NCBI RefSeq assembly: GCF_010672745.1
Contig: NZ_JAAHFW010000035.1
Coordinates: 8,973-72,972, forward strand
DNA length: 64,000 bases
Direction of reading: 5' to 3'
Source: Okeania sp. SIO1F9
GTDB lineage: Bacteria; Cyanobacteriota; Cyanobacteriia; Cyanobacteriales; Microcoleaceae
Positions 5,283 to 59,904 of this stretch are shown here, one piece after another (position 1 is the stretch's first letter; each line of letters begins with the position of its first letter). Position numbers and translations under genes: made by a program. Under the pieces are notes generated by a model, which was not told the origin of the DNA, ran no database searches, and saw only the letters and a list, made by a program, of their open reading frames with translations.

Positions 5283-5400
5283 AGTACCCATCCATTTTTT
5301 CCTTGCTTCCTTCTTCCTTGCTTCCTTCTTCTTTGCTTCCTTCTTCCTTCTTCCTTCTTCCTTCTTCCTTCTTCCTTCTGACTTCTTTCTTCTTCCTTCA
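5283..5400. repeat. STRR heptamer tract (TTCCTTG/TTCCTTC)n
   Basis: Direct tandem heptamers. The overlapping ORF 5234..5464 is a translation artefact of the repeat. Confidence 0.8.
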
Positions 5401-5444: not shown

Positions 5445-6710
5445 ATGGAACAAGAAATCTATAAGCAAGCAGTAGCAAAATCTCGTGCTAAAGACTATGA
5501 GGCAGCAATTCAATATTTTAGTAGAGTTATAGAAATTAATCCTAATTTTGCTGAAGCTTATTATGGCCGAGGTTTAGCAAAGTTTGATTTAGGAAACAAC
5601 AAAGAAGCCATTGTTGATTATACTCAAGCTTTAGCAATTAATCCTAATTATATAGATGCTTATTTAGCTCGTGGTATTGCTAAGTTGGCAGTAAAAGATA
5701 TTTCGGAAACTATTGCAGATGCAAATCAAATAATTGCTATTAATAATAACTATGCTCCGGCATATAAATTGTTGGGTAATGCTTATCGTCAACAACATAA
5801 TCAAGCAGATGCCATAGATAATTTTAAGCGAGGAGCAGAATTGTATTTAGAACAGAAAGATGTAGTTAATTGTCGGAAATGTTTGGATAATATTAAGCAA
5901 ATACAATCTGTATCTACTACTGCTGTAAAAGTTGAAAATAATCTCCAAAAAGGTGATAGTAAAACATTTTTAAATAAGATTTTAAGAAAATTTGAAAAAG
6001 GCGATCGACAGGGAGTAATAGCAGATTTAAACTGGGCTTTACAAGTAGACCCAGAAGATTCTCAAGCCTATTGTTGTCGGGGAATTATTCGTTATAAACA
6101 AGGGGAGAATTTAGGTGCAATATCAGATTTTAATCAAGCTTTGCAATTTAACGACCGAGATATTTTAGCTTATCAAAATCGAGGGATAATTCGCAGTAAA
6201 ATGGGAGATTTTAAAGGAGCGATCGCTGACCTTGATGCAGCTTTAAAAATTGAACCGAATAATTCGCTTATTTATGTAAGTCGGGGAAATACTTATCGGG
6301 ATATGGGAGCATATCAAGAGGCAATAAAAGATTATGAACAAGCATTAAAAATTAACCCTAATGAAGCCAAAGCTTTTTATCATCGAGGCATTGTTTATTT
6401 CCGTTTAGAAGAAATGAAAAAAGCCATAGATGATTATCAGAATGCTGCTAAATTATTCGGGGATGCTGAAGATTGGAATAACTATAAAAAAACCTTAGAT
6501 GACTTGAAGAAAATTCACGGAACTGTTCCTAGTCAAAATCAGAACCTTAACGAAGATAATCAATATAAACAACTACAACAAAAACTTTTAAAAATGGTTG
6601 GTGGGCATTGGGAAATGGCAGAAAGATTAATCGCAAAAGTTCGAGAAAAATATCCTGGAAGGGATAAGATTTGGTATTTGGAAAAAGTTATATCTGATTA
6701 TCAACAATAG
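5445..6710 (+). CDS. Tetratricopeptide (TPR) repeat protein
   Basis: Multiple 34-aa repeats with a 'A..Y..G.....G....A...Y..AL..NP' pattern. Confidence 0.8.
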   Translation: MEQEIYKQAVAKSRAKDYEAAIQYFSRVIEINPNFAEAYYGRGLAKFDLGNNKEAIVDYTQALAINPNYIDAYLARGIAKLAVKDISETIADANQIIAINNNYAPAYKLLGNAYRQQHNQADAIDNFKRGAELYLEQKDVVNCRKCLDNIKQIQSVSTTAVKVENNLQKGDSKTFLNKILRKFEKGDRQGVIADLNWALQVDPEDSQAYCCRGIIRYKQGENLGAISDFNQALQFNDRDILAYQNRGIIRSKMGDFKGAIADLDAALKIEPNNSLIYVSRGNTYRDMGAYQEAIKDYEQALKINPNEAKAFYHRGIVYFRLEEMKKAIDDYQNAAKLFGDAEDWNNYKKTLDDLKKIHGTVPSQNQNLNEDNQYKQLQQKLLKMVGGHWEMAERLIAKVREKYPGRDKIWYLEKVISDYQQ

Positions 6711-12296: not shown

Positions 12297-12510
12297 GTTG
12301 TGTTAGCGTTTGCGCAGTATTCCGCACCGAAAGCGTAACGCACCGAGATCTTTGAGATAGCTACAAACTATTCAACGGTGCGTTACGGCGCAACGTAATA
12401 TTTGACAGTTCAACAGTATTTTGTAGTAAGCGCCTAACTCACCCTACTGTACTACTACGGAGGCGATGGCACTGACTCCTTAAATTAACAATGAGTAATC
12501 TTCTTGAAGA

Positions 12511-12563
12511 AGGCAGAAGGCAGAAGGCAGAAGGCAGAAGGCAGAAGGCAGAAGGCAGAAGGG
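12511..12563. repeat. STRR heptamer tract (GGCAGAA)n, about 7.5 copies
   Basis: Perfect tandem heptamers. Confidence 0.85.
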
Positions 12564-25923: not shown

Positions 25924-26325
25924 TAAAAATAATAGGATTAGGTTTAAAAGTTTATGATTGCTATCGACCTCTATCAGTGACAAAAAAGATGTGGGAAGTT
26001 TTGCCAGATTCTTGTTATTTTGCTAATCCTGAGAAAGGTTCTCGACATAATCGTGGTGCTGCAGTTGTCGTCTGCTTCTACTTGTTCCTCAATGATGCAA
26101 GTTGACCAGTTTCATAACGTGATGGCAGGTACGAGTATGGCAACGCCGTTTATTACTGGGTTGGTAGTGTTACTGTTGGAAAAGGAGCCGCAGTTAACCC
26201 CTGAAGAAATTAAGCAACGTTTGCATTCAAGTAGTTTTATTCCTGGAAAACCTGTTGGCAGTTTCGACCCAAAATGGGGTTTTGGTTTGATCGATGCTGA
26301 AAAATTATTGACGTTGGTGAATTAG
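25924..26325 (+). pseudogene. Gene remnants: a D-Ala-D-Ala dipeptidase (VanX/M15-like) fragment ('GLGLKVYDCYRP...GSRHNRGAAV') followed out of frame by a subtilisin-like S8 peptidase C-terminal fragment ('GTSMATPFITG')
   Basis: Both fragments lack start codons and sit in overlapping frames. The conserved SxHxxGxAxD (VanX) and GTSMAxP (subtilase catalytic Ser) motifs are recognisable. Confidence 0.45.
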
Positions 26326-27046
26326 TGTATGATATTAATCTTAATTATTTTAGGAGTCAACTCACCCCTCGCCCCTCCCCCTCCCAGGAGGGAAATTCAG
26401 GAGTCAGGAGTCAGGAGGCATCGAAGGAAGAGAATTGAGAAAGATTTAGCAATGACTAAAGATATAGCAGTATGCGCTAGTATATTCACAAATTGCAGGA
26501 ACTACCCAATAGATAAAAGTCTGATATAACTCCTAAGAAATAGCCTAGCTATTTGCTGATAGTATTTCTCACAAACATCGATCGTGCTTGTTATTACTAA
26601 TGATATTAAATCCGGTTGAATACTTATCATATATTTGGGAGTGGGGAGTAGGAGAGTAGGGGCGAATGGCATTAGCGAACGCTCTCAGTAGATTTAGTAT
26701 CCGTGCAGAGGATCGGTTTTTCCCAGGCTGCTATTAAACAAATGGACATGATATAAGTCCTAAAATATGTTTAAGAACTTATTAAGAATCTATATCAATA
26801 AAATTAAGGTTATGTTAGGTGATTTTTTGAATAAATTATAAATAATATCACCCATAAAAAAAAGGATTGTGCATGATGAACATTTCTTGCTACTAGGACT
26901 ACTAAACTAATTGTTTCTTATATATCTCCTAGATTTTCCTGCTATTTCTTACTTGCTCTCCAACCCCAACTCAATTGATGTAACAGATACCCCTTAATAA
27001 AACTTCATATTTTATTGTTGATAAAAAATATTAATTGTGTTCAAAT

Positions 27047-27073
27047 AAAATTATTGATAATAAAGCTCAATTA
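27047..27073. promoter_or_regulatory. Candidate Fur (iron) box upstream of the isiA-like cluster
   Basis: 'AAATTATTGATAATAAAGCTCAATTAT' resembles the GATAAT-type Fur box. The isiA promoter of Anabaena is a known FurA target. Confidence 0.2.
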
Positions 27074-27236
27074 TAGTAGTCCTATTTCCGCTATGTAGAA
27101 AATATCCAACAGAGCAAAGGTATAAGGAATAATCATCATCAAAATTTTTATTCTACTTTGGGATTTTTACAAATTATTTAGGACTGCTATAGAGCCTTCT
27201 TTAACTGATCTTCATCAGACTGAGGACCAAATCTCT

Positions 27237-28088
27237 ATGCAAACACTTGGCAATTACGAGCAAAAACTAATATTACTACCTCATCTAGCAACATTAGGTA
27301 TTGGTATCGAAGCAGGGGTACAAACAATCGACACCTATCCCTACTATGTCATCGGTATGCTGCATCTCATCAGTTCTGCTGTTTTGGGAGCAGGAGGTAT
27401 CTACCATGCAGTTTTAGGGCCGAAACAGCTTGATGAGAAAGGTTTTGGCTACGACTGGGAAGATGGCAACAAGATGACTACTATTTTGGGTATTCATCTA
27501 GTGCTGTTGGGGGTGGGAGCATCTCTATTGGTCATTAAAGCAACGGTTTTAGGTGGTATTTACGATCCACTAATAGAACAAGTAAGGTTAATACAGCCTA
27601 ATCTCGATCCCGTAAGAATTTTCGGTTATCTGTTTGGCTTTAGTCCTAATGGTTGGACAATTACTGGCATGGCTAGCGTAGATAATCTCGAAGATGTGGT
27701 CGGTGGTCATGTCTGGGTGAGCCTACTCTGCACTGTTGGTGGTCTATTTCACATTATTTCCAAACCTACGGGTTGGGCAAAACAAATACTAATTTGGTCC
27801 GGAGAGGCTTACTTGTCTTACAGTTTAGGGGCACTTGCGATCGCAGGATTTAGCGTAGCTGTCTTTATCTCCACCAACGAAACTGTTTATCCTAGCGTGT
27901 TTTATAGTCCTATTGGCAGCGACTCTGTGCGAACTGCTCTTGCTACCGTTCATGCTGGATTAGGTTTCCTAGCTTTGCTCGGACATTTATGGCACGCTTA
28001 CCGAGCGCGAGCTGCTACTCGTAAAGTATTTTATGGAACGTTCTTTGACTTTATGGCTAAGAATGTTACACCTATTACACCTGCTTGA
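27237..28088 (+). CDS. isiA: Chlorophyll-binding protein of the CP43/IsiA/Pcb family, N-terminally truncated copy (lacks helix I)
   Basis: '[21 protein letters not shown]...[27 protein letters not shown]' matches IsiA from helix II onward. The upstream in-frame sequence is not IsiA-like. Confidence 0.75.
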
Positions 28089-28137
28089 ATAGAAGTCAAA
28101 ATCTAAGTTCAATCATTATATAAGGAGAACAATAGTA

Positions 28138-29166
28138 ATGACTGTCGTAACTGATGATAATCTGCAAATCCCTTGGCGGGCAGGTAATGCTCGGCTTGTT
28201 AACCTATCTGGTAAGCTATTGGGCGCTCATGTAGCCCATGCTGGCTTAATTGTACTCTGGGCTGGAGCTATTACTTTGTTTGAAGTTGCCAACTTTGATT
28301 CCTCCCTACCAATGTACGAACAGGGCTTAATTGTACTGCCTAATCTAGCCCGCTTGGGATTTGGAGTTGGTGAAGGAGGTGTCATTGATACCTACCCCTA
28401 CTTTGTGATTGGGGTACTGCATTTGATTAGTTCGGCGTTTTTAGGAGCAGGTGGTATATTCCACGCTCTCAGAGGTCCAGCCAAACTAGAAGACAAATTT
28501 TCCTTCTTTGGCTATAGCTGGGATAATCCAGGTAAAATGACAACTATTCTAGGTATACATTTAGTCTTATTAGGAATCGGAGCATTTTTACTTGTAGCAA
28601 AAGCGATTGCATTTGGAGGGTTATACGATCCAGTAGTTCAAAATGTACGAGTAATATCAAGTCCCACTCTAAATCCTACTACCATTTTCGGCTACTTCTT
28701 CGGTACAGAAGGACGTTTCTGGCTGGCTGGTGTTAACTCTTTAGAAGATGTAGTAGGCGGTCACATTTGGATTGGTGCTATCTGCATTTTGGGTGGTATC
28801 TGGCATATTCGCACCGTACCCTTTGACTGGGCTAAAGGCTTATTTGTCTGGTCAGGAGAAGCATATTTGTCTTACAGTATTGGCGCAGTCAGCTTAATGG
28901 CATTTGTCGCAACATTGTTTGTGTCCGTTAACTCCCTGGTATTTCCCACAGAATTTTTCGGACCAACTTTGACTCTGGTGTTCGATCGCTTTCCTGTGTT
29001 TGTTAGTACTGATGGAGCCTTGACTGCAAGAGTATGGTTGGCAAATGCTCACTTCTGGTTAGGATTTTTCTTCCTGCAAGGACATATATTCCACGCCCTC
29101 CGGGCAGCAGGTTATAGCTTCACCGAAGGCAGAGTAGTCACATTTACAAGAGGTCAAGTAAGCTAG
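28138..29166 (+). CDS. isiA: Iron-stress-induced chlorophyll-binding protein IsiA (CP43')
   Basis: Full-length, 342 aa, six helices. '[37 protein letters not shown]' is the classic IsiA N-terminus. Confidence 0.85.
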
Positions 29167-29168
29167 TT

Positions 29169-30734
29169 ATGACTGTAACTAAATCAAATCCATTAAAGTT
29201 TTTAGGCTTTTCCACAGATAATAATGTTGATGTTGCGAACTATGTTAGTGATTCCCAAGAACCTTATTCTTGGTGGGCAGGTAATTTTCGCTTTGTTAAC
29301 TTGTCTGGAAAATTATTGGGAGCGCACATTGCTCATGCAGGGTTGATCGTACTCTGGGCTGGAGCAATGACTCTGTTTGAGCTATCAAAATTCGATCCTA
29401 GTCTAGCCATGTACGACCAAGGACTGATTTTGCTGCCCCACATGGCGACTCTGGGTATAGGGGTTGGCGCAAATGGTGAAATTATTGATACTTATCCCTA
29501 CTTTGCTATTGGTGTTATCCATCTCGTTAGTTCAGCAATTCTAGGCGCTGGTGGCATTTTCCATGCCGTGCTTGGACCTGACAAACTTGATGAAAAGGGA
29601 TTTGGCTATCAGTGGAATGATGGCAAGAAAATGACTACTATCCTTGGTATTCATCTACTGCTACTGGGGATGGGAGCATTTTTGCTAGTAGCCAAAGCTA
29701 TGTATTTTGATGGTTTGTATGACCCGGCGATCGCCAATGTGCGACTGATTACTGAACCCACTCTCAACCCACAGACTATCTTCGGTTACCTCGTCGGTAT
29801 CACCCCTGATGGCTGGACGTTGAAGGGTATGGCTGCTGTCAACTCTTTAGAAGATGTGATAGGCGGTCACATTTGGATTGGTAGTATCTGTATTCTGGGT
29901 GGTCTCTGGCATATTAATACTGCTCCTACAAAATGGGCTAAGGGTCTTTTTGTCTGGTCGGGAGAGGCATATCTTGCCTATAGTCAGGCAGCTCTGGCTT
30001 ATATGGGTTTTTTCGCAGCCTACTTTGTCTGGGTGAATGATACAGTCTATCCTTCAGTATTTTATGGTCCTGTAGGTGTGACTAATGTTGATGGTACAAT
30101 CACTCCTCGCACCTGGCTGATGTTGTTCCAACTCATCTTTGCCTGTCTGCTACTGGCAGGTCACTTTTGGCATGGTCTCAGAGCTAGAGCGATCGCGAGT
30201 GGATTTGTCTTCAGTAATATGAAGTTCAATCCCGGTGCCCTCTATGGAGACACTCAGTTTAATAACGAATCTCTAGTGACTGGTATTGTACAGCCTTTCC
30301 AGAACGATCCCCAGTTGGGGAATTTGGCAACCCCAATTAATTCCAGTCAGCTTACCATCACTTGGGTTAAGAACTTACCCATTTATCGGAATGGTTTATC
30401 CCCTATTGCACGGGGTCTGGAAATTGGCATGGCTCACGGATACCTATTATTAGGGCCGTTCCTCAAACTCGGACCATTGCGCAACACCGACCAAGCTCTT
30501 CTAGCTGGAGGTGGTAGTGCATCTGGCTTAGTAGTGATTTTAAGTATCTGTCTGTTTGTTTATGGGGCGGTAGTGTTTCAAGGTTCTAGTAAACCAAGAG
30601 GCGTTTTGCCGGAGAACCTGCAAACTTATCAGGAATGGAGTCTATTTACTTCTGGTTTTCTCATTGGAGGAATAGGCGGTGTGATTTTTGCCTGCTTTAT
30701 CCTTATAGAAATCGGGCGATCGGGAATTTTATAA
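29169..30734 (+). CDS. IsiA (CP43')-PsaL fusion protein
   Basis: The N-terminal ~340 aa are IsiA-like. The C-terminal ~170 aa carry PsaL signatures ('[38 protein letters not shown]'). Such fusions are known in Anabaena 7120 (all4002) and Leptolyngbya JSC-1. Confidence 0.8.
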
Positions 30735-30949
30735 CTTTGTTTGCTTGAGCAGGGGAATAGGGACAGAAGTTAATATTCCTAATTTTTATCAGGAAAGGCA
30801 GAAGGCAGGAGGCAGAAGGCAGAAGGGAATTCTTACTCGTCTGTTACCTTTAGGGGAACAAGGGTATAAAAACCCCATCCAATTGTTCCTTCTGCCCTCT
30901 GCTCTCAGCATAGCTGCCTTAGTTCATCGGATATTTACTATGTTTCCTG

Positions 30950-31075
30950 CTCTATAAAACTGACACAAAGCGTCAAATAACGTGACAAATTGATAGCGTA
31001 GCTCCTCCGTAGGAGGCTGTTTACTTCCTGCTTCAAGTGAGGCCGTCGGCGGTTACTCATCCACAGGCATTGACG
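30950..31075 (+). repeat. ~125-bp dispersed repeat ('CTCTATAAAACTGAYACAAAGCGTCAMATAAMGTGACAAATTGA...GAGGCCGTCGGCGGTTACTCATCCACARGCATTKACGGTCRAGCCRACCGCA'). Second copy at 58868-58990.
   Basis: Two copies with ~90% identity in the same orientation. Both are intergenic. Both contain the GTCACATAAAGTGAC imperfect palindrome. Confidence 0.65.
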
Positions 31076-31669
31076 GTCAAGCCAACCGCATCTGTTGAGT
31101 CTATACCTACATTTAAGTCTTTGTCAATCAACATCAGAAAAAATCCTCAAACCCTGACTGCGCCCTTCCTAGTAGGGAGCGGGATTTCTTCTGAGGTCTA
31201 TGTCTATATAGATAGACTGCCAGAAATGTTTAAGTCGCGATTAGTGCAGAAGATACAAAGCGTCACCATCGTTACTACTTGCCTGTGAGAACTAGCGTAT
31301 TATTTCGCGCTCCGTATCGCAAATTGTTAACTAAGTCGAAACTCTCCTGCTTCAGTTAACAGCTCAAAAATGTTTTGACAACTCTATTACCTAGAAGTTG
31401 TTTGTAAATAATTATAAAGTGTTTTTACTCCTCACCAATTTATAACTCTCTGATAATTAATCTCAAACCCTTGTACTACCTGGGCAAAAACTTCACTTCT
31501 GGAGATGTATATTGAGTATTTCAGAGTACAAAGTTTGGAATAAATAACTAAATTAAAGGTGTTCCTTTACCTTACAAAAATTTACAAACAGTCTCTTTGG
31601 AATTTTTAGGTAATTCACTCTATGATATAGTCGAATCTTATAATTTTTAGTTTTTACAGGATTTTATCA

Positions 31670-32383
31670 ATGACAATTCCTTTAATGTACTACCCACTCT
31701 CTAGTCAAAACCATCGGGTTCAAAAATTTGATGTTCCAGGAGATGAATATCCTAAACAATACACTTTAGAGAACCTGCCTACTGCTACAGAGATGGATGA
31801 GATTATCTGGGCAGCCTATCGGCAAATTTTCAATGAGCAGCAAATGATCGCAGCACATCGACAGGTTGCTCTGGAGTCCCAACTGCGCAATGGTCAGATT
31901 ACAATGAAAGATTTCATTCAAGGTTTGTTGCTTTCTGAGTCATTCCGGCGACTGATCTATGATAGCAACAGTAACTATCGTTGTGTTGAGCTTTGTATTC
32001 AAAGGGTTTTAGGACGTCCTGTCTATAACAATCAAGAGAAACTTGCCTGGTCTATTGTATTGGCAACAAAAGGACTTCAGGGTTTTGTCAATGACCTGTT
32101 AAACAGCGAAGAATATGACAAGTATTTTGGCTATAACTTTGTTCCCTATCAACGTTGCCGAATTTTACCCCAACGCACTCAGGGAGAGTTACCTTTTGCT
32201 CGAATGGCTCGTTACGACAGCTATTACCTAGAGCAGTTATATCAAACAGGGCAACTACGGAAATTTTATCCAGGTATGTTAGATAGTAGCGCTCGTGCTT
32301 ATCGCAAAGCTCTATCATTTGTGGGAATACTCTCTGTAGCAGTGTTATTAGTTACTCTGATTCTAGTACTTTCGCCCAAATAA
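31670..32383 (+). CDS. cpcG: Phycobilisome rod-core linker of the CpcG family with a C-terminal hydrophobic anchor (CpcL/CpcG2-type)
   Basis: The N-terminus 'MTIPLMYYPLSSQNHRVQKF' and the PBS-linker domain ('AAYRQIFNEQQ...LESQLRNGQITMKDFIQGLLLSESFRRL') are present. The C-terminal transmembrane tail 'VGILSVAVLLVTLILVLSPK' is typical of the PSI-associated CpcL. Confidence 0.65.
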   Translation: MTIPLMYYPLSSQNHRVQKFDVPGDEYPKQYTLENLPTATEMDEIIWAAYRQIFNEQQMIAAHRQVALESQLRNGQITMKDFIQGLLLSESFRRLIYDSNSNYRCVELCIQRVLGRPVYNNQEKLAWSIVLATKGLQGFVNDLLNSEEYDKYFGYNFVPYQRCRILPQRTQGELPFARMARYDSYYLEQLYQTGQLRKFYPGMLDSSARAYRKALSFVGILSVAVLLVTLILVLSPK

Positions 32384-32922: not shown

Positions 32923-33843
32923 CTAAAACAAAAAAATCATCCGAATAATTCCCACAGTAATAGTGTCATTATCTTCATCATGTTCGGGATTAATAACTAC
33001 TAAAACTCCCGGATTAATTGAAATATTGTCATTAATTTGATAACGATAAAAACCCTCTAAATGCCAAGCTGTATCATCATCATCTGGACCATTATCAGTA
33101 TCAGTTACTTTAGGTGGATTTCCAATTACAAAACCAAGCAAACTTCCCTGTTTACCTAAGTCAGTAAATCCTAAAGTAACTGCCCAATTAAAAATAGTTG
33201 CTTCATCTCCTTCCTTAACAAGACCAACAGATTTTTCAGCATCAGCAAAACTCCATCCAGTCCAACCGGAAACTGTGAAATTATTCAAAGCACGCCAACT
33301 TCCTTGAATACCTAAATGATCTGCGGAAGTGGGAACTAAATTACCAAAGGGTGCATTTGCTCTTCTACTACCTGTTGCTGCTGAGACAAATAACTTTCTT
33401 TTTGGATAGTAAGAACGTACATAAGTAACGCCAAAACGGAGGCGATCGCTTGGTCGAATATCTAGTTGTGCTAAACCTGCATTACTACCATTAAAAAATC
33501 CATTACTTTCTGTTGGGTTTTCCGGATCTCTTGCTAAATATCCTAATGATAAACTGACCGATTTATTAATATTATAAACAACTGTTACTCCAGCACCTCG
33601 TGCCCCTTGAGCATAGATAGGATTGAAGCGTCCAAACCTAGAAATTGCCCCTGATATTCTCTTTGCAAAAAGTCTGTTGAAGTTATCAGAAACATTCATA
33701 TTAAACCTACCACCAATAGCATCAACATGAACTCTAAATTTTTTCCCAATGGGAAAACGATAGAATAATTTACCAATATCAACAGTATTATTAGTATTTC
33801 TTTGAAACGCTAAACGAGTCATATTTGTTCCAGTTATTGGCAC
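32923..33843 (-). pseudogene. OprB-family outer-membrane porin, C-terminal beta-barrel portion only (the N-terminal SLH/coiled-coil half is missing)
   Basis: The barrel ends in a terminal aromatic residue ('...GIIRMIFLF') and contains motifs of cyanobacterial OprB-type porins. At 306 aa it is far short of the usual >500 aa. There is no room for the N-terminal domain before the next gene remnant. Confidence 0.5.
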
Positions 33844-33931: not shown

Positions 33932-34285
33932 TTAATTTTTAGGTGGTACTCCTTGCAAAGCAGTAATCAGAGGTCTGACCGCTCGACTAATCAAAGGTTT
34001 TATACCAGCTATTATTCCGAGGAAACTGCCACTTAATGTTGCTATTGTGAAGCCACTAATTGCATTTAAACTAGTAGTTAAAATAGCTAAAGTTAATTTA
34101 TTTGCCGTTGCCAAATTTTTCAGAGCGACTAGAGTTTCTAGAGGAGAAGGTAGAATGATTGAACTATAGTGCATTGCTAGTAGTTGCCATATAGTTATAA
34201 ATCCTAAAAAGCCGATTAATTCAGGTAAAATAACTTGAATTAGTTTGAATATATTTTTATCAAATTTATCAGATTGAATCATCAA
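33932..34285 (-). pseudogene. ABC-transporter permease (NitT/TauT family-like), N-terminal 117 aa only
   Basis: Permease-like N-terminus with transmembrane helices, cut off after ~117 aa where full-length proteins run to ~260 aa. It abuts the porin remnant, consistent with a deletion joining the two. Confidence 0.4.
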
Positions 34286-34312: not shown

Positions 34313-34478
34313 AGGACTTACGCAAAGACACTATATATAGCGTTTACCAATTTAGGCGATTGCTGACGCAAAGCTCCGCTAACGCTTAAAAAATCAAGTG
34401 CGATCGCCTCAAGATTTTGGGCATTTTTCAAACAAGAGTAAAAACACTTAATATAGTGTCCTTGCGTAAGTCCTGATT
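34313..34478. mobile_element. MITE / IS-end element bounded by 27-29-bp terminal inverted repeats (CAGGACTTACGCAAAGACACTATATAT ... ATATAGTGTCCTTGCGTAAGTCCTG)
   Basis: Perfect inverted termini. The internal sequence is shared, in opposite orientation, with 36497-36771 and with the 18.1-18.6 kb partial copies. Confidence 0.65.
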
Positions 34479-34640
34479 AAAATACATTTTAAGACATAGT
34501 TGTTTAACTTCAGGGTGATATGCTTTGGGTTTAGGAGATTCAACAAATTGATGTCCACAGTCGTGACAACGATAAGATTGTTTTTGCCGACGAAAACCAT
34601 TTTTCTTATAACGAGAAGATTGGCATTTGGGACAGTACAT
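34479..34640 (-). pseudogene. Remnant of an IS transposase N-terminus (InsA-like zinc ribbon)
   Basis: 'MYCPKCQSSRYKKNGFRRQKQSYRCHDCGHQF' is a CxxC...CxxC zinc-ribbon typical of IS1-family InsA and ORFA proteins. It stops after ~55 aa upon entering the MITE. No downstream transposase body is present. Confidence 0.45.
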
Positions 34641-34882: not shown

Positions 34883-36280
34883 ATGGCTCAGTCTCTAAAC
34901 GATCACCTTCACCTTTCTATCATTGCATGTGGTCACGCTGGTTCCGGTAAGTCCACCACCCTATGACACTTGATCTACAAATGCGGCTCGATTACCAAGC
35001 GTCAGATATCTACGTTTGAGAAAGAGTCTCTTGAAATGGGAAAGGGGTCTTCCAAGTATGCCTGGGTCATGGATAGAACTCCGGAGGAACGCGAGCGAGG
35101 TATGACCCTAGAGGTGAACTACTGGAGAATAAAAACGGAGAAATATTTCTGCCATCTCATTGATGTTCCCCATGCCATTGATCAAGTGATTAGTGCGGCC
35201 TCCCAAGCTGATGCTGCGATACTCATGGTTGATGCCAAAAAAGGAAGCTTTGAAGCTGGCTATGCTATGGACGGACAAACTCGCCAACACGCTTTCATAC
35301 TCTATTGCCTTGGTGTCAAGCAGCTTATTGTTGCTGTCAATCAGATGGATGCTGTTAACTATGACCAAGAGCGCTACAACGAGATTGTTCTAGAAATGAG
35401 TGAACTTCTCAAAAAAATTGGCTACAATCCGAAAGCAATTAGGTTTATTCCTATCTCTGGATGGACAGGTGAGAACTTCTTGGAACCAGCAAGTAATATG
35501 AGTTGGTATCAAGGTACTCATATTGAGATGATGAACAGGTACGGGAATTTGGTACGAGCTTCTTTTAAAACCCTCTTCGAGGCTATTAATACCTTTCTTC
35601 TACCTTCAGATGACTCTGGACCCATGCGTACCTGTGTCTCTAGAGTATTTCAACCCGGGGACGACCATAACCTACAGATTGGTAATGGTCGATTTTCATT
35701 TATGGGACATGTTGAACGTGGAATCCTTAAGCCGGGAGATGAAGTTGTCTTTTACCCCACTCACACCAACTCCAACCCTTGCACAGCTAGAATTACCAAT
35801 CTAGAGATTAGCCATGAGGAGACCACCTCCGCTAAGAAGGGTAACATTGTCAATTTTATTCTCGATGGTATTTCCCATGCTAACTCGCCCCATGTTGGTG
35901 ATGTCATGGTTCATAAATCCGACTCCTCTATTGGCAGGATTCGGAGCTTCCAAGCTCAGGTTATTGTGCAATCTCATTGTGGTTCGATTGAAGTTGGCTA
36001 CCAGACCACAGTCCTTATCAATAGTGCCCAGGTTGTAGTCCGCCTCACTGCTATCGAGCGTCAACTAGATAGAAGGGGTCGCACCATCGCTGAGAACCCC
36101 GCTAAGATTGAGGAAGGAGATGGTGCCATTGTTACATTTGAAGTCCAAGAACCTTTAACGGCAGAGCCATTCAAGGATTGTTCAGGACTGGGTCGGTTGA
36201 TTCTGATGGACGGTAATAAGAATTCTGAGGGCGTTGCCAATTTAATAGTTGGTGTCATCCGAGAGGTTGAACGTGTTTGA
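34883..36280 (+). pseudogene. Eukaryote/archaeon-type translation elongation factor 1-alpha (eEF1A/aEF1A)-like gene with degenerate GTPase motifs and an in-frame TGA at 34964-34966
   Basis: '[76 protein letters not shown]...' aligns residue-for-residue with eEF1A ('[61 protein letters not shown]'). The G-motifs are altered: GHVDSGKST to [9 protein letters not shown], DAPGH to DVPHA, and NKMD to NQMD. Domains II and III are recognisable through to 'GVIREVERV'. GC is higher than in the flanks and there is no HIP1 site. Confidence 0.7.
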
Positions 36281-58867: not shown

Positions 58868-58990
58868 CCTGCTCTATAAAACTGATACAAAGCGTCACAT
58901 AAAGTGACAAATTGACGTTTACTTCTTGCTTCAACTGAGGCCGTCGGCGGTTACTCATCCACAAGCATTTACGGTCGAGCCGACCGCATA
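58868..58990 (+). repeat. Second copy of the ~125-bp dispersed repeat seen at 30950-31075
   Basis: ~90% identity over ~120 bp. The ORFs overlapping either copy (31037..31288 +, 58779..59057 -) are on different strands and are probably spurious. Confidence 0.65.
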
Positions 58991-59904
58991 TCTCAAATTT
59001 ATACTGGCGTTTAAATCTCCTCAAAAGGAGAATCAGCGCAGCCACCCTGCTTCTCAAGGCGGATAAATTCTGATTTTTTTTGTAGAGGCTTTCCGATTTT
59101 ACAGGCAGACAAACATGAACATTATTAAGTTATGTAGTTTGTCTGATTACCTGAACTACCGCTAGTAGATATAATAGAAAATTTATATTGTTTCTACGAC
59201 CTTTTAAGTAAGTCAGGTAGGTTATCAACCACTACAATATAAAGATATAGAAATTACTACTGTCTCACACATATCAATCTCAGGAATTTTAAGCCCCTGC
59301 GATTAAGTTTCCTTTCGTCTCACTCCTAAACCTACGGCCATAGAGAGGAATTTCCTAGAGGGTCTGTTGAGAAAGGTTAGAGCCAATATTTGGCTATCGT
59401 TAAGCTGTTGTATATATCAAGTTTCCGTTGGACAAAGGAAGAAAAAATGACCTTAATTTTGAGGTTTTCCATGTCCCAGCGTATCTACCTACATTACCGT
59501 AGGTATTTTATGATACTTAACAGCTCCCTTTGGGTAGCTCGTCTTTATCTTCATAATGATTAACATAATAACAAATGACTTAACATTTGCCACATTTATT
59601 ACATATTTTCCTGGAATTAACTTAATTTTTTAGATTTTGTACATTGATGTAGAGGTTTTGGGACATTACACACTTTTTACAGAAGTTACTTAAAAGTGAT
59701 ACAGGCGTTACATGTAAAGTCTGTAAAGCAATCAAAGTTAAGAAGAATTTCTGATGTATATATTGTAATGTGTTAAGATTTTAAGTTGCGCAAGAAGCCC
59801 AGTATAGTTTATATCTTCATAAGTATCATTTAGTTGCAAGACTTTATGTGTCTAATGATGCTTTGGCAATCCCTAAAAATGTACCCTACACTTCAACTGA
59901 ATGA

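Follow-up and report, generated by a model that had tools for sequence, protein, structure and literature searches.

The stretch of DNA analyzed here comprises 64,000 nucleotides (nt) of Okeania sp. SIO1F9 (contig NZ_JAAHFW010000035.1, positions 8,973 to 72,972; hereafter the window), a cyanobacterium of the family Microcoleaceae. It carries three genes of the IsiA family head to tail on the + strand, the last of them fused to a PsaL domain, and these are followed by a gene for a rod linker, cpcL (Table 1; all positions are those of the window unless another locus is named). By exact protein look-up, the four products are NET78046-NET78049, and the isiA2 and cpcL products are present without change in Okeania hirsuta. 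By analogy with characterized relatives, the locus is very probably the Okeania orthologue of the published iron-starvation-inducible isiA2-isiA3-isiA4-cpcL (cpcG2) cluster and would work by the mechanism proposed below.

Table 1. Features of the isiA2-isiA3-isiA4-cpcL locus (bp, base pairs; aa, amino acids; ORF, open reading frame)
Feature	Position	Strand	Length	Assignment
Upstream block	26993-27098	+	106 bp	Conserved; likely promoter/operator of the isiA2-4 operon
isiA2	27237-28088	+	283 aa	isiA2-type gene, allele with a 249-bp in-frame deletion
isiA3	28138-29166	+	342 aa	isiA3-type, six-helix, chlorophyll-binding antenna of the IsiA/Pcb family
isiA4	29169-30734	+	521 aa	isiA4-type IsiA-PsaL fusion, uninterrupted ORF
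isiA4-cpcL spacer	30735-31669	+	935 bp	Lineage-specific; repeats and hairpins
cpcL (older name cpcG2)	31670-32383	+	237 aa	Rod linker

The proteins were compared with profiles of Pfam (PF00421, PF02605 and PF00427) and NCBIfam (TIGR03041, the IsiA/Pcb subfamily, with a cut-off of 335 bits, and TIGR01153, the psbC equivalog, with a cut-off of 603 bits). We found PF00421, the photosystem II/CP43 family, in all three isiA products on the + strand (150, 237 and 256 bits in gene order), in agreement with the three head-to-tail IsiA-family genes of the initial annotation. IsiA3 (411.9 bits) and IsiA4 (366.3 bits) scored above the TIGR03041 cut-off, and IsiA2 (276.7 bits) fell below it because 83 of its residues are deleted. 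With TIGR01153, all three were far under the cut-off (282-391 bits, with 391 bits for IsiA3). CP43 chains have 450-473 aa versus the 342 aa of IsiA3 and the ~345 aa of the IsiA part of IsiA4, and alignments of both proteins to CP43 chains end at about residue 304-314, which is the start of loop E. Judged by profile and length, IsiA3 and IsiA4 are IsiA/Pcb cores that lack the large lumenal loop E, and neither is encoded by a true psbC.

The product of isiA4 consists of an IsiA domain (residues ~33-345), a linker (~346-373) and a PsaL domain (374-513). PF00421 matched residues 33-304 and beyond, and PF02605 matched residues 374-513 (190.5 bits; positions 2-146 of the 150 in the profile). A single polypeptide thus holds both IsiA and the complete C-terminal PsaL that had been claimed for it. 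Its match to the Anabaena IsiA2 chain 7y3f_1 reached 611 bits over residues 30-512 with ~60% identity, and the two-domain architecture is the same as that of IsiA2 of Anabaena PCC 7120 (PDB 7y3f and 9zjt). In the cryo-electron microscopy structure from Anabaena, the PsaL-like domain of IsiA2 takes the PsaL site, photosystem I (PSI) is monomeric, and six IsiA lie on the PsaA side (PMC9938196). By analogy, Okeania IsiA4 would replace PsaL and give a monomeric PSI-IsiA complex. The isiA4 start lies 2 nt past the isiA3 stop, as in the orthologues, and we count this spacing, as predicted translational coupling, in favor of our reading.

Two further observations concern isiA4. Its first ~30 codons (29169-29260) have a synonymous-codon identity of ~0.9 among Okeania, Trichodesmium and Dapis versus ~0.6 in the rest of the gene; this may reflect constraint at the nucleotide level, such as translational coupling with isiA3 or RNA structure. 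Outside the window, O. hirsuta has an annotated protein of 574 aa (P0037, WP_445974445.1) that consists of PsaL, then IsiA from mid-helix I, then PsaL again, which suggests that isiA4 has been partly duplicated or rearranged in O. hirsuta, unless the product is an artefact of assembly or annotation.

The second gene had been described as a canonical IsiA, and this description did not hold. Among solved chains, its best relative is the Anabaena 'PsbC homolog' 9zjt_2 (515 bits), ahead of CP43 chains (~410 bits) and IsiA1 chains (339-362 bits), and we found no flavodoxin gene (isiB) near the cluster; hence, neither feature of a canonical IsiA1, closest similarity to IsiA1 and an adjacent isiB, is present. 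Full-length forms of the isiA2 product gave a score pattern similar to that of IsiA3 against the solved chains. IsiA2, IsiA3 and IsiA4 form clades apart from IsiA1 (PMC12090762). IsiA3 is at least 90% identical to Trichodesmium Tery_2484 (P0018, same 90% cluster), and both IsiA3 and IsiA4 fall in 90% clusters with Trichodesmium proteins, including ABG51692 of T. erythraeum IMS101. By these comparisons, the second gene encodes an IsiA3-type paralogue and not IsiA1.

The linker belongs to the CpcG family and has the hydrophobic C-terminal tail of the CpcL type, as annotated initially. PF00427 (PBS_linker_poly), the domain on which that annotation had made its reading depend, is present with 157.1 bits (cut-off 28.7) at residues 39-162, profile positions 3-126 of 126. 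The sole hydrophobic segment is formed by residues 210-237 at the C-terminal end (Kyte-Doolittle 19-residue mean 2.88), and a C-terminal hydrophobic tail was found in 15/15 of the fusion-linked orthologues. CpcL is defined by a hydrophobic helix at its C-terminus that takes the place of the core-binding C-terminal region of CpcG, and CpcL of Anabaena and Synechocystis forms core-less rods that pass energy to PSI (PMC5737509). Of the solved relatives with a single domain, Synechocystis CpcL (8hfq_n) matches best (251 bits), residues 1-231 align to CpcL 9wd5_1, and the ELPFARM segment after the domain matches CpcL with E = 1e-5 versus E = 0.14 for CpcG. The protein is under every cut-off of the strain-specific CpcG1-4 models of NCBIfam. 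CpcL was formerly named CpcG2 in Synechocystis 6803 and CpcG3 in Anabaena 7120. In contrast to these two, the Okeania protein has its gene linked to that of an IsiA-PsaL fusion, and regulation by iron, rather than by light color through CcaS/R, would be expected from its orthologues.

Fusions with both domains form >120 clusters at 90% identity in the protein database. We surveyed their synteny with one genome per species, keeping the best 80 fusion-encoding loci. Ten of these encode fusions of ~515-524 aa that are 66-92% identical to Okeania IsiA4, and in 10/10 the genes run isiA-isiA-fusion-cpcL, all in one orientation; the contig end cuts off a further, eleventh locus of this fusion class, which could not be evaluated. 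The ten loci belong to several orders and include Dapis, Brasilonema, Aphanocapsa, Petrachloros, Leptolyngbyaceae and several metagenome-assembled genomes (MAGs), and one surveyed genome (L007) has an extra isiA after cpcL. The other 69 of the 80 loci encode the shorter, Anabaena-type fusion (50-60% identity to Okeania IsiA4), usually with one isiA upstream and more isiA downstream or divergently upstream. A CpcG-like gene lies within 7 kb in 4 of these 69, in a different arrangement. In the Nostocales-type loci of the Anabaena class, the fusion is the second gene, two further isiA follow 2-5 kb downstream, and there is no cpcL within 7 kb. Hence, comparison with the Anabaena all4000-all4003 region would show that synteny is not conserved for cpcL. 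In Anabaena, all4003 is one of the isiA-family genes all4000-4003.

The closest described counterpart is in Trichodesmium IMS101, where the locus encodes a 368-aa IsiA-like protein, a 343-aa IsiA-like protein, a 522-aa fusion and a 236-aa linker with a hydrophobic tail. These genes have been named isiA2-isiA3-isiA4-cpcG2 (Tery_2483-2486) and are syntenic with a Leptolyngbya JSC-1 cluster (PMC12090762). Trichodesmium and Okeania share the gene order, the orientation, the 2-nt gap between isiA3 and isiA4 and the upstream block, and the cpcL regions are 78% identical (tblastn). They differ in the genes that flank the cluster and in isiA2, which encodes 368 aa in Trichodesmium and has a 249-bp in-frame deletion in Okeania. 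They also differ in the spacer between isiA4 and cpcL, which is 1588 bp in Trichodesmium versus 935 bp in Okeania, with unrelated sequences.

For Leptolyngbya JSC-1, the accounts of Shen, Gan & Bryant (2016, Photosynth Res 128:325) given in later papers (PMC12090762, PMC9938196) describe the order isiA2-isiA3-isiA4-cpcG2-isiA5, and an induction of the cluster of ~500-fold under iron starvation (via PMC12090762). As far as these accounts go, JSC-1 is like Okeania in having three IsiA paralogues, of which the third ends in a PsaL-like domain, and a linker of the CpcG2/CpcL type after them; it differs in having isiA5 after cpcL, where Okeania instead has a 64-aa ORF and then, on the opposite strand, an OprB porin that is truncated.

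Iron co-regulation, the absence of which had been named as a refutation, has been published for the Trichodesmium orthologues; this agrees with the suggestion that the locus is a co-regulated PSI antenna-remodeling unit of IsiA-PsaL and CpcL. Upon iron addition, the log2 fold changes were -7.9, -8.2 and -8.3 for Tery_2483-2485 and -4.8 for cpcG (Tery_2486) (PMC12090762 supplement), and no other response to iron in the Trichodesmium transcriptome was as large as that of Tery_2483-2486 (PMC12090762). Clusters of this type, their regulation by iron and the part that the IsiA-PsaL fusion plays in the structure have all been published; the adjacency of cpcL, which had been called worth noting, has been described for both Trichodesmium IMS101 and Leptolyngbya JSC-1.

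When the upstream regions were aligned across three genera (Okeania, Trichodesmium and Dapis), a sharply delimited conserved block emerged at 26993-27098, with 70% invariant columns versus 21% farther upstream, and a peak of 83% at 27040-27069. The segment at 27047-27073, proposed initially as a Fur box, sits on this peak. TTGATAA(A/T)A occurs twice in the block, at 27018-27026 and at 27054-27062, and the block also holds a 17-bp imperfect palindrome, TTGATAATAAAGCTCAA, at 27054-27070, and a -10-like hexamer, TATAGT, at 27072-27077. The exact motif TTGATAATAAAGCTCAA occurs once in the window, and in each of the eight loci of Okeania, Trichodesmium and Dapis it keeps the same relative position; the Trichodesmium block shares the motif TTGA(A/T)AATAAA(A/G)(C/G)TCAA with Okeania. 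From this conservation, the block is probably a real cis-element, either an operator or a promoter.

Taken with the published structure and expression results, the locus suggests the following mechanism. Iron limitation would de-repress the operon through the conserved promoter/operator at ~26993-27098, the repressor being probably, but not demonstrably, Fur. The PsaL-like domain of IsiA4 would then enter the PsaL site, block formation of PSI trimers or tetramers and set the IsiA domain beside PsaA, as seen by cryo-electron microscopy of the Anabaena homologue and extended to Okeania through the ~60% identity. IsiA3, together with IsiA2 where this is intact, would extend the arc of chlorophyll antenna around the PSI monomer. 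CpcL, held by its C-terminal helix, would nucleate core-less phycocyanin rods that feed PSI, as expected from its family, and by orthology and synteny these rods would add phycobilin absorption. Transcription of cpcL would be lower, most likely through partial read-through of the structured 935-bp spacer.

Several results weigh against this reading. The Anabaena IsiA2 of known structure belongs to another fusion subclass than IsiA4: the Anabaena protein has 476 aa, its inter-domain linker is ~20 residues shorter, and it lacks the N-terminal extension of IsiA4. In scans with three Fur consensus sequences (Anabaena AAATAAATTCTCAATAAAT (PMC4005646), the E. coli box and 7-1-7), no match above background was found at 27047-27073; this segment scored 13/19 with the Anabaena consensus and 12/19 with the E. 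coli box, and the AT-rich 64-kb window holds 125 and 220 equal-or-better sites, respectively. Nor is the cluster among the nine Fur-box genes of the Trichodesmium paper (PMC12090762). In Trichodesmium, cpcG is induced ~27-fold versus ~250-320-fold for the isiA genes, and its low-iron read counts are ~8-fold below those of isiA (PMC12090762 supplement); hence, the regulation of cpcG is tied to that of isiA without being the same. Co-transcription in Okeania is uncertain, given a spacer with hairpins and a lack of conservation upstream of cpcL.

The chance-level similarity to Fur consensus sequences raises the possibility that the upstream element is bound by another regulator (RpaB, a PfsR-like protein or an activator) or is simply the core promoter. 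The TATAGT hexamer inside the block fits such an explanation, as does the control of Synechocystis isiA by RpaB and PfsR as well (PMC8634477). We regard it as possible but rather doubtful, since the strongest iron response of the Trichodesmium transcriptome maps to the orthologous operon (PMC12090762), and since the TTGAT-N7-CTCAA palindrome resembles the CTCAAT half-site of Anabaena FurA boxes, one of which is predicted for all4003 (PMC4005646). In addition, more distant orthologous clusters have Fur-like AT-rich palindromes upstream, such as TTGAGTTTAATTCTCAA in L012 with its similar TTGAG-N7-CTCAA arrangement, although this is only marginally beyond chance. The Fur-box claim stands in part: the segment at 27047-27073 has the sequence described and keeps its position upstream of an operon whose Trichodesmium orthologue is the most iron-responsive, but its consensus match is no better than chance. 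Based on position and palindrome, it is plausibly a putative Fur operator that overlaps the promoter.

The distance between isiA4 and cpcL had been given as 650 bp; we measured the 935 bp listed in Table 1, and the cpcL frame has no alternative start codon farther upstream. In most lineages, the interval between the fusion and cpcL is 71-208 bp; it is 622 bp in Dapis, 935 bp in Okeania and 1588 bp in Trichodesmium. The Okeania spacer contains a hairpin of heptamer (STRR-like) repeats at 30795-30912, a short, terminator-like GC hairpin followed by a run of T (31004-31026) and, at 30946-31120, a dispersed repeat of 175 bp, a further copy of which lies at 58868-59018. The predicted fold of 30735-31030 has -89.8 kcal/mol (z = -2.6). 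We found no similarity between this spacer and those of Trichodesmium or Dapis, and in its 935 bp no conserved promoter, small ORF or Rfam family, only sub-threshold Rfam noise.

Such a spacer could insulate cpcL. If its growth from the 71-208 bp of other lineages to 935 repeat-filled bp, with a long hairpin and a terminator-like site, has cut cpcL off, cpcL would be an independent unit whose adjacency is inherited synteny, and it might respond to light quality like the CcaS/R-linked cpcL of other species (PMC5737509). A separate operator could lie 219 bp before cpcL in the sequence TGATAATTAATCTCA at 31451-31465 (+), as it matches the 7-1-7 Fur consensus at 12/14 positions and is among the best four sites of the window. 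We consider an independent cpcL unlikely, since the Trichodesmium spacer is longer still and its cpcG is nonetheless ~27-fold iron-responsive, and since no ccaS or ccaR genes flank cpcL. The region before cpcL is not conserved over the three genera either; the site at 31451 is not kept in Trichodesmium or Dapis and was rejected as a separate conserved promoter or Fur box of cpcL. Most likely, cpcL is partly read through from the isiA promoter, an arrangement that would fit the ~8-fold lower low-iron counts of cpcG in Trichodesmium.

The first gene, isiA2, lacks helix I, as had been noticed; the explanation offered, that it may be a degenerate duplicate, was not borne out. The start of its product aligns to the loop after helix I of IsiA3 and IsiA4, both of which keep this helix. 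Okeania orthologues elsewhere have 355-370 aa, and we found that the SIO1F9 protein is the 366-aa form (P0004) minus residues 7-89, with the remaining 283/283 residues identical. The ancestral start (MQTLGN) is kept, and a single internal, in-frame loss of 249 bp has removed codons 7-89, with the junction at 27251-27255 (the lost bases are 6019-6267 of the sister strain, L001). The rest of the gene is 99.9% identical in DNA to that of the sister strain. The lost segment codes for the extension at the N-terminus and for transmembrane helix I, whose His-x-x-His motif (GAHVAHAG) has gone with it; hence, the protein does not have the six helices with helix-I histidines.

Two further assemblies, L086 of O. 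hirsuta and L087, have the same deletion allele. In addition, the spacer between isiA2 and isiA3 (28089-28137) lacks a 142-bp element of the sister strains (7125-7266 of L001, with GGAGACA heptamer repeats). This element is also absent in O. hirsuta L086 but is kept in L087 despite the helix-I deletion. Hence, the two changes are independent and are not assembly artefacts. Compared with its full-length relatives, the gene is a very young deletion allele of a conserved isiA2 and not an old degenerate duplicate. Its product is probably non-functional, because a five-helix protein would need an inverted topology of the remaining helices; as a secondary possibility, several Okeania strains may express the five-helix IsiA2 and tolerate it as a shortened subunit of the antenna.

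Two other ideas about this deletion were discarded. A helix-I remnant upstream of the gene was sought by tblastn and three-frame translation, and the weak resemblance found is spurious, as the full-length allele shows that the deletion is internal and the start retained. A simple repeat-mediated deletion would not account for the loss: CAATG occurs at both ends, 248 bp apart, but 249 bp are missing, so there was no clean repeat recombination. The one extra base lost at the junction keeps the gene in frame.

A damaged first gene could also mean that the whole cluster is decaying in this lineage under relaxed selection and may no longer build a functional PSI antenna. The loss of helix I with its two conserved histidines and the spread of repeats into spacers point in this direction, as do the 142-bp indel in the spacer between isiA2 and isiA3, the annotated PsaL-IsiA-PsaL product of O. 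hirsuta (P0037, 574 aa) and pseudogene fragments close by (part of an S8 peptidase, an OprB that is truncated and an ORF resembling IS1). Nevertheless, decay of the cluster appears very unlikely. isiA3, isiA4 and cpcL are intact and full length, with products at least 90% identical to Trichodesmium or other Okeania proteins; the family scores of IsiA3 and IsiA4 exceed the TIGR03041 cut-off; and the upstream operator block is conserved. Moreover, full-length isiA2 is kept in other Okeania strains, and the deletion is recent enough for the remainder of the gene to be still 99.9% identical in DNA.

The neighborhood itself looks as if it is decaying. Upstream, a C-terminal piece of an S8 peptidase lies at 26020-26325 (+). 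Downstream, an OprB-family porin fragment at 32923-33843 (-) misses the first ~100 profile positions; a hydrophobic 117-aa ORF at 33932-34285 (-), without a Pfam match, is presumably a fragment of a membrane protein; and an ORF at 34428-34640 (-) with paired Cys-x-x-Cys motifs looks to us, by eye, like IS1 InsA, an assignment we treat as an assumption. An ORF of 436 aa at 34970-36280 (+) has EF-Tu/eEF1A-like domains (GTP_EFTU, D2, D3 and GTP-eEF1A_C), starts with TTG and matches from profile position 24; by our reading of it by eye, DVPHAIDQV appears to stand where the DxxG switch motif is expected. This ORF could be a pseudogene or encode a degenerate GTPase. Throughout the window, there are short tandem repeats of heptanucleotides (STRR-like), often as intergenic hairpins (5299-5399, 12508-12562, 26397-26417 and 30795-30912).

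Matches to the antisense RNA IsrR were not accepted as independent signs of an antisense regulator at this locus. The IsrR model (Rfam RF01419) matched the - strand inside each of the three isiA genes (27456-27630, 28519-28696 and 29613-29790) with 119-131 bits versus a gathering threshold of 52. The model also matches every isiA-like gene in the Trichodesmium, UBA2566 (a Leptolyngbya-like MAG) and Nostoc loci, and synonymous-codon identity in the matched regions is not raised (0.40-0.71 versus gene means of 0.51-0.60). Beside the 5' ends of the matches, we found no convincing antisense promoter. Judged by these comparisons, the matches probably reflect coding homology only.

For the biology of these cyanobacteria, the helix-I deletion allele, which segregates among Okeania strains, is a natural variant with which to test whether IsiA2 is dispensable. 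The 106-bp upstream block is now defined for the Trichodesmium/Okeania/Dapis lineage and can be tested with FurA; the regulatory element also has some applied interest, because iron-limited nitrogen fixation in the sea is a process for which Trichodesmium and related genera are important. Linkage of cpcL is constant in one fusion subclass over several orders and rare in the other, which sharpens the hypothesis that CpcL rods act with IsiA4-PSI. Tentatively, the cluster-linked CpcL may be a dedicated partner of the 520-aa fusion class, its helix docking on the IsiA4/PsaL-like module of monomeric PSI; such a partnership would explain why cpcL is linked in 10/10 loci of this class and nearly absent from the Anabaena IsiA2 class. 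If true, this docking would give a megacomplex of PSI monomer, IsiA and rods that is structurally undescribed.

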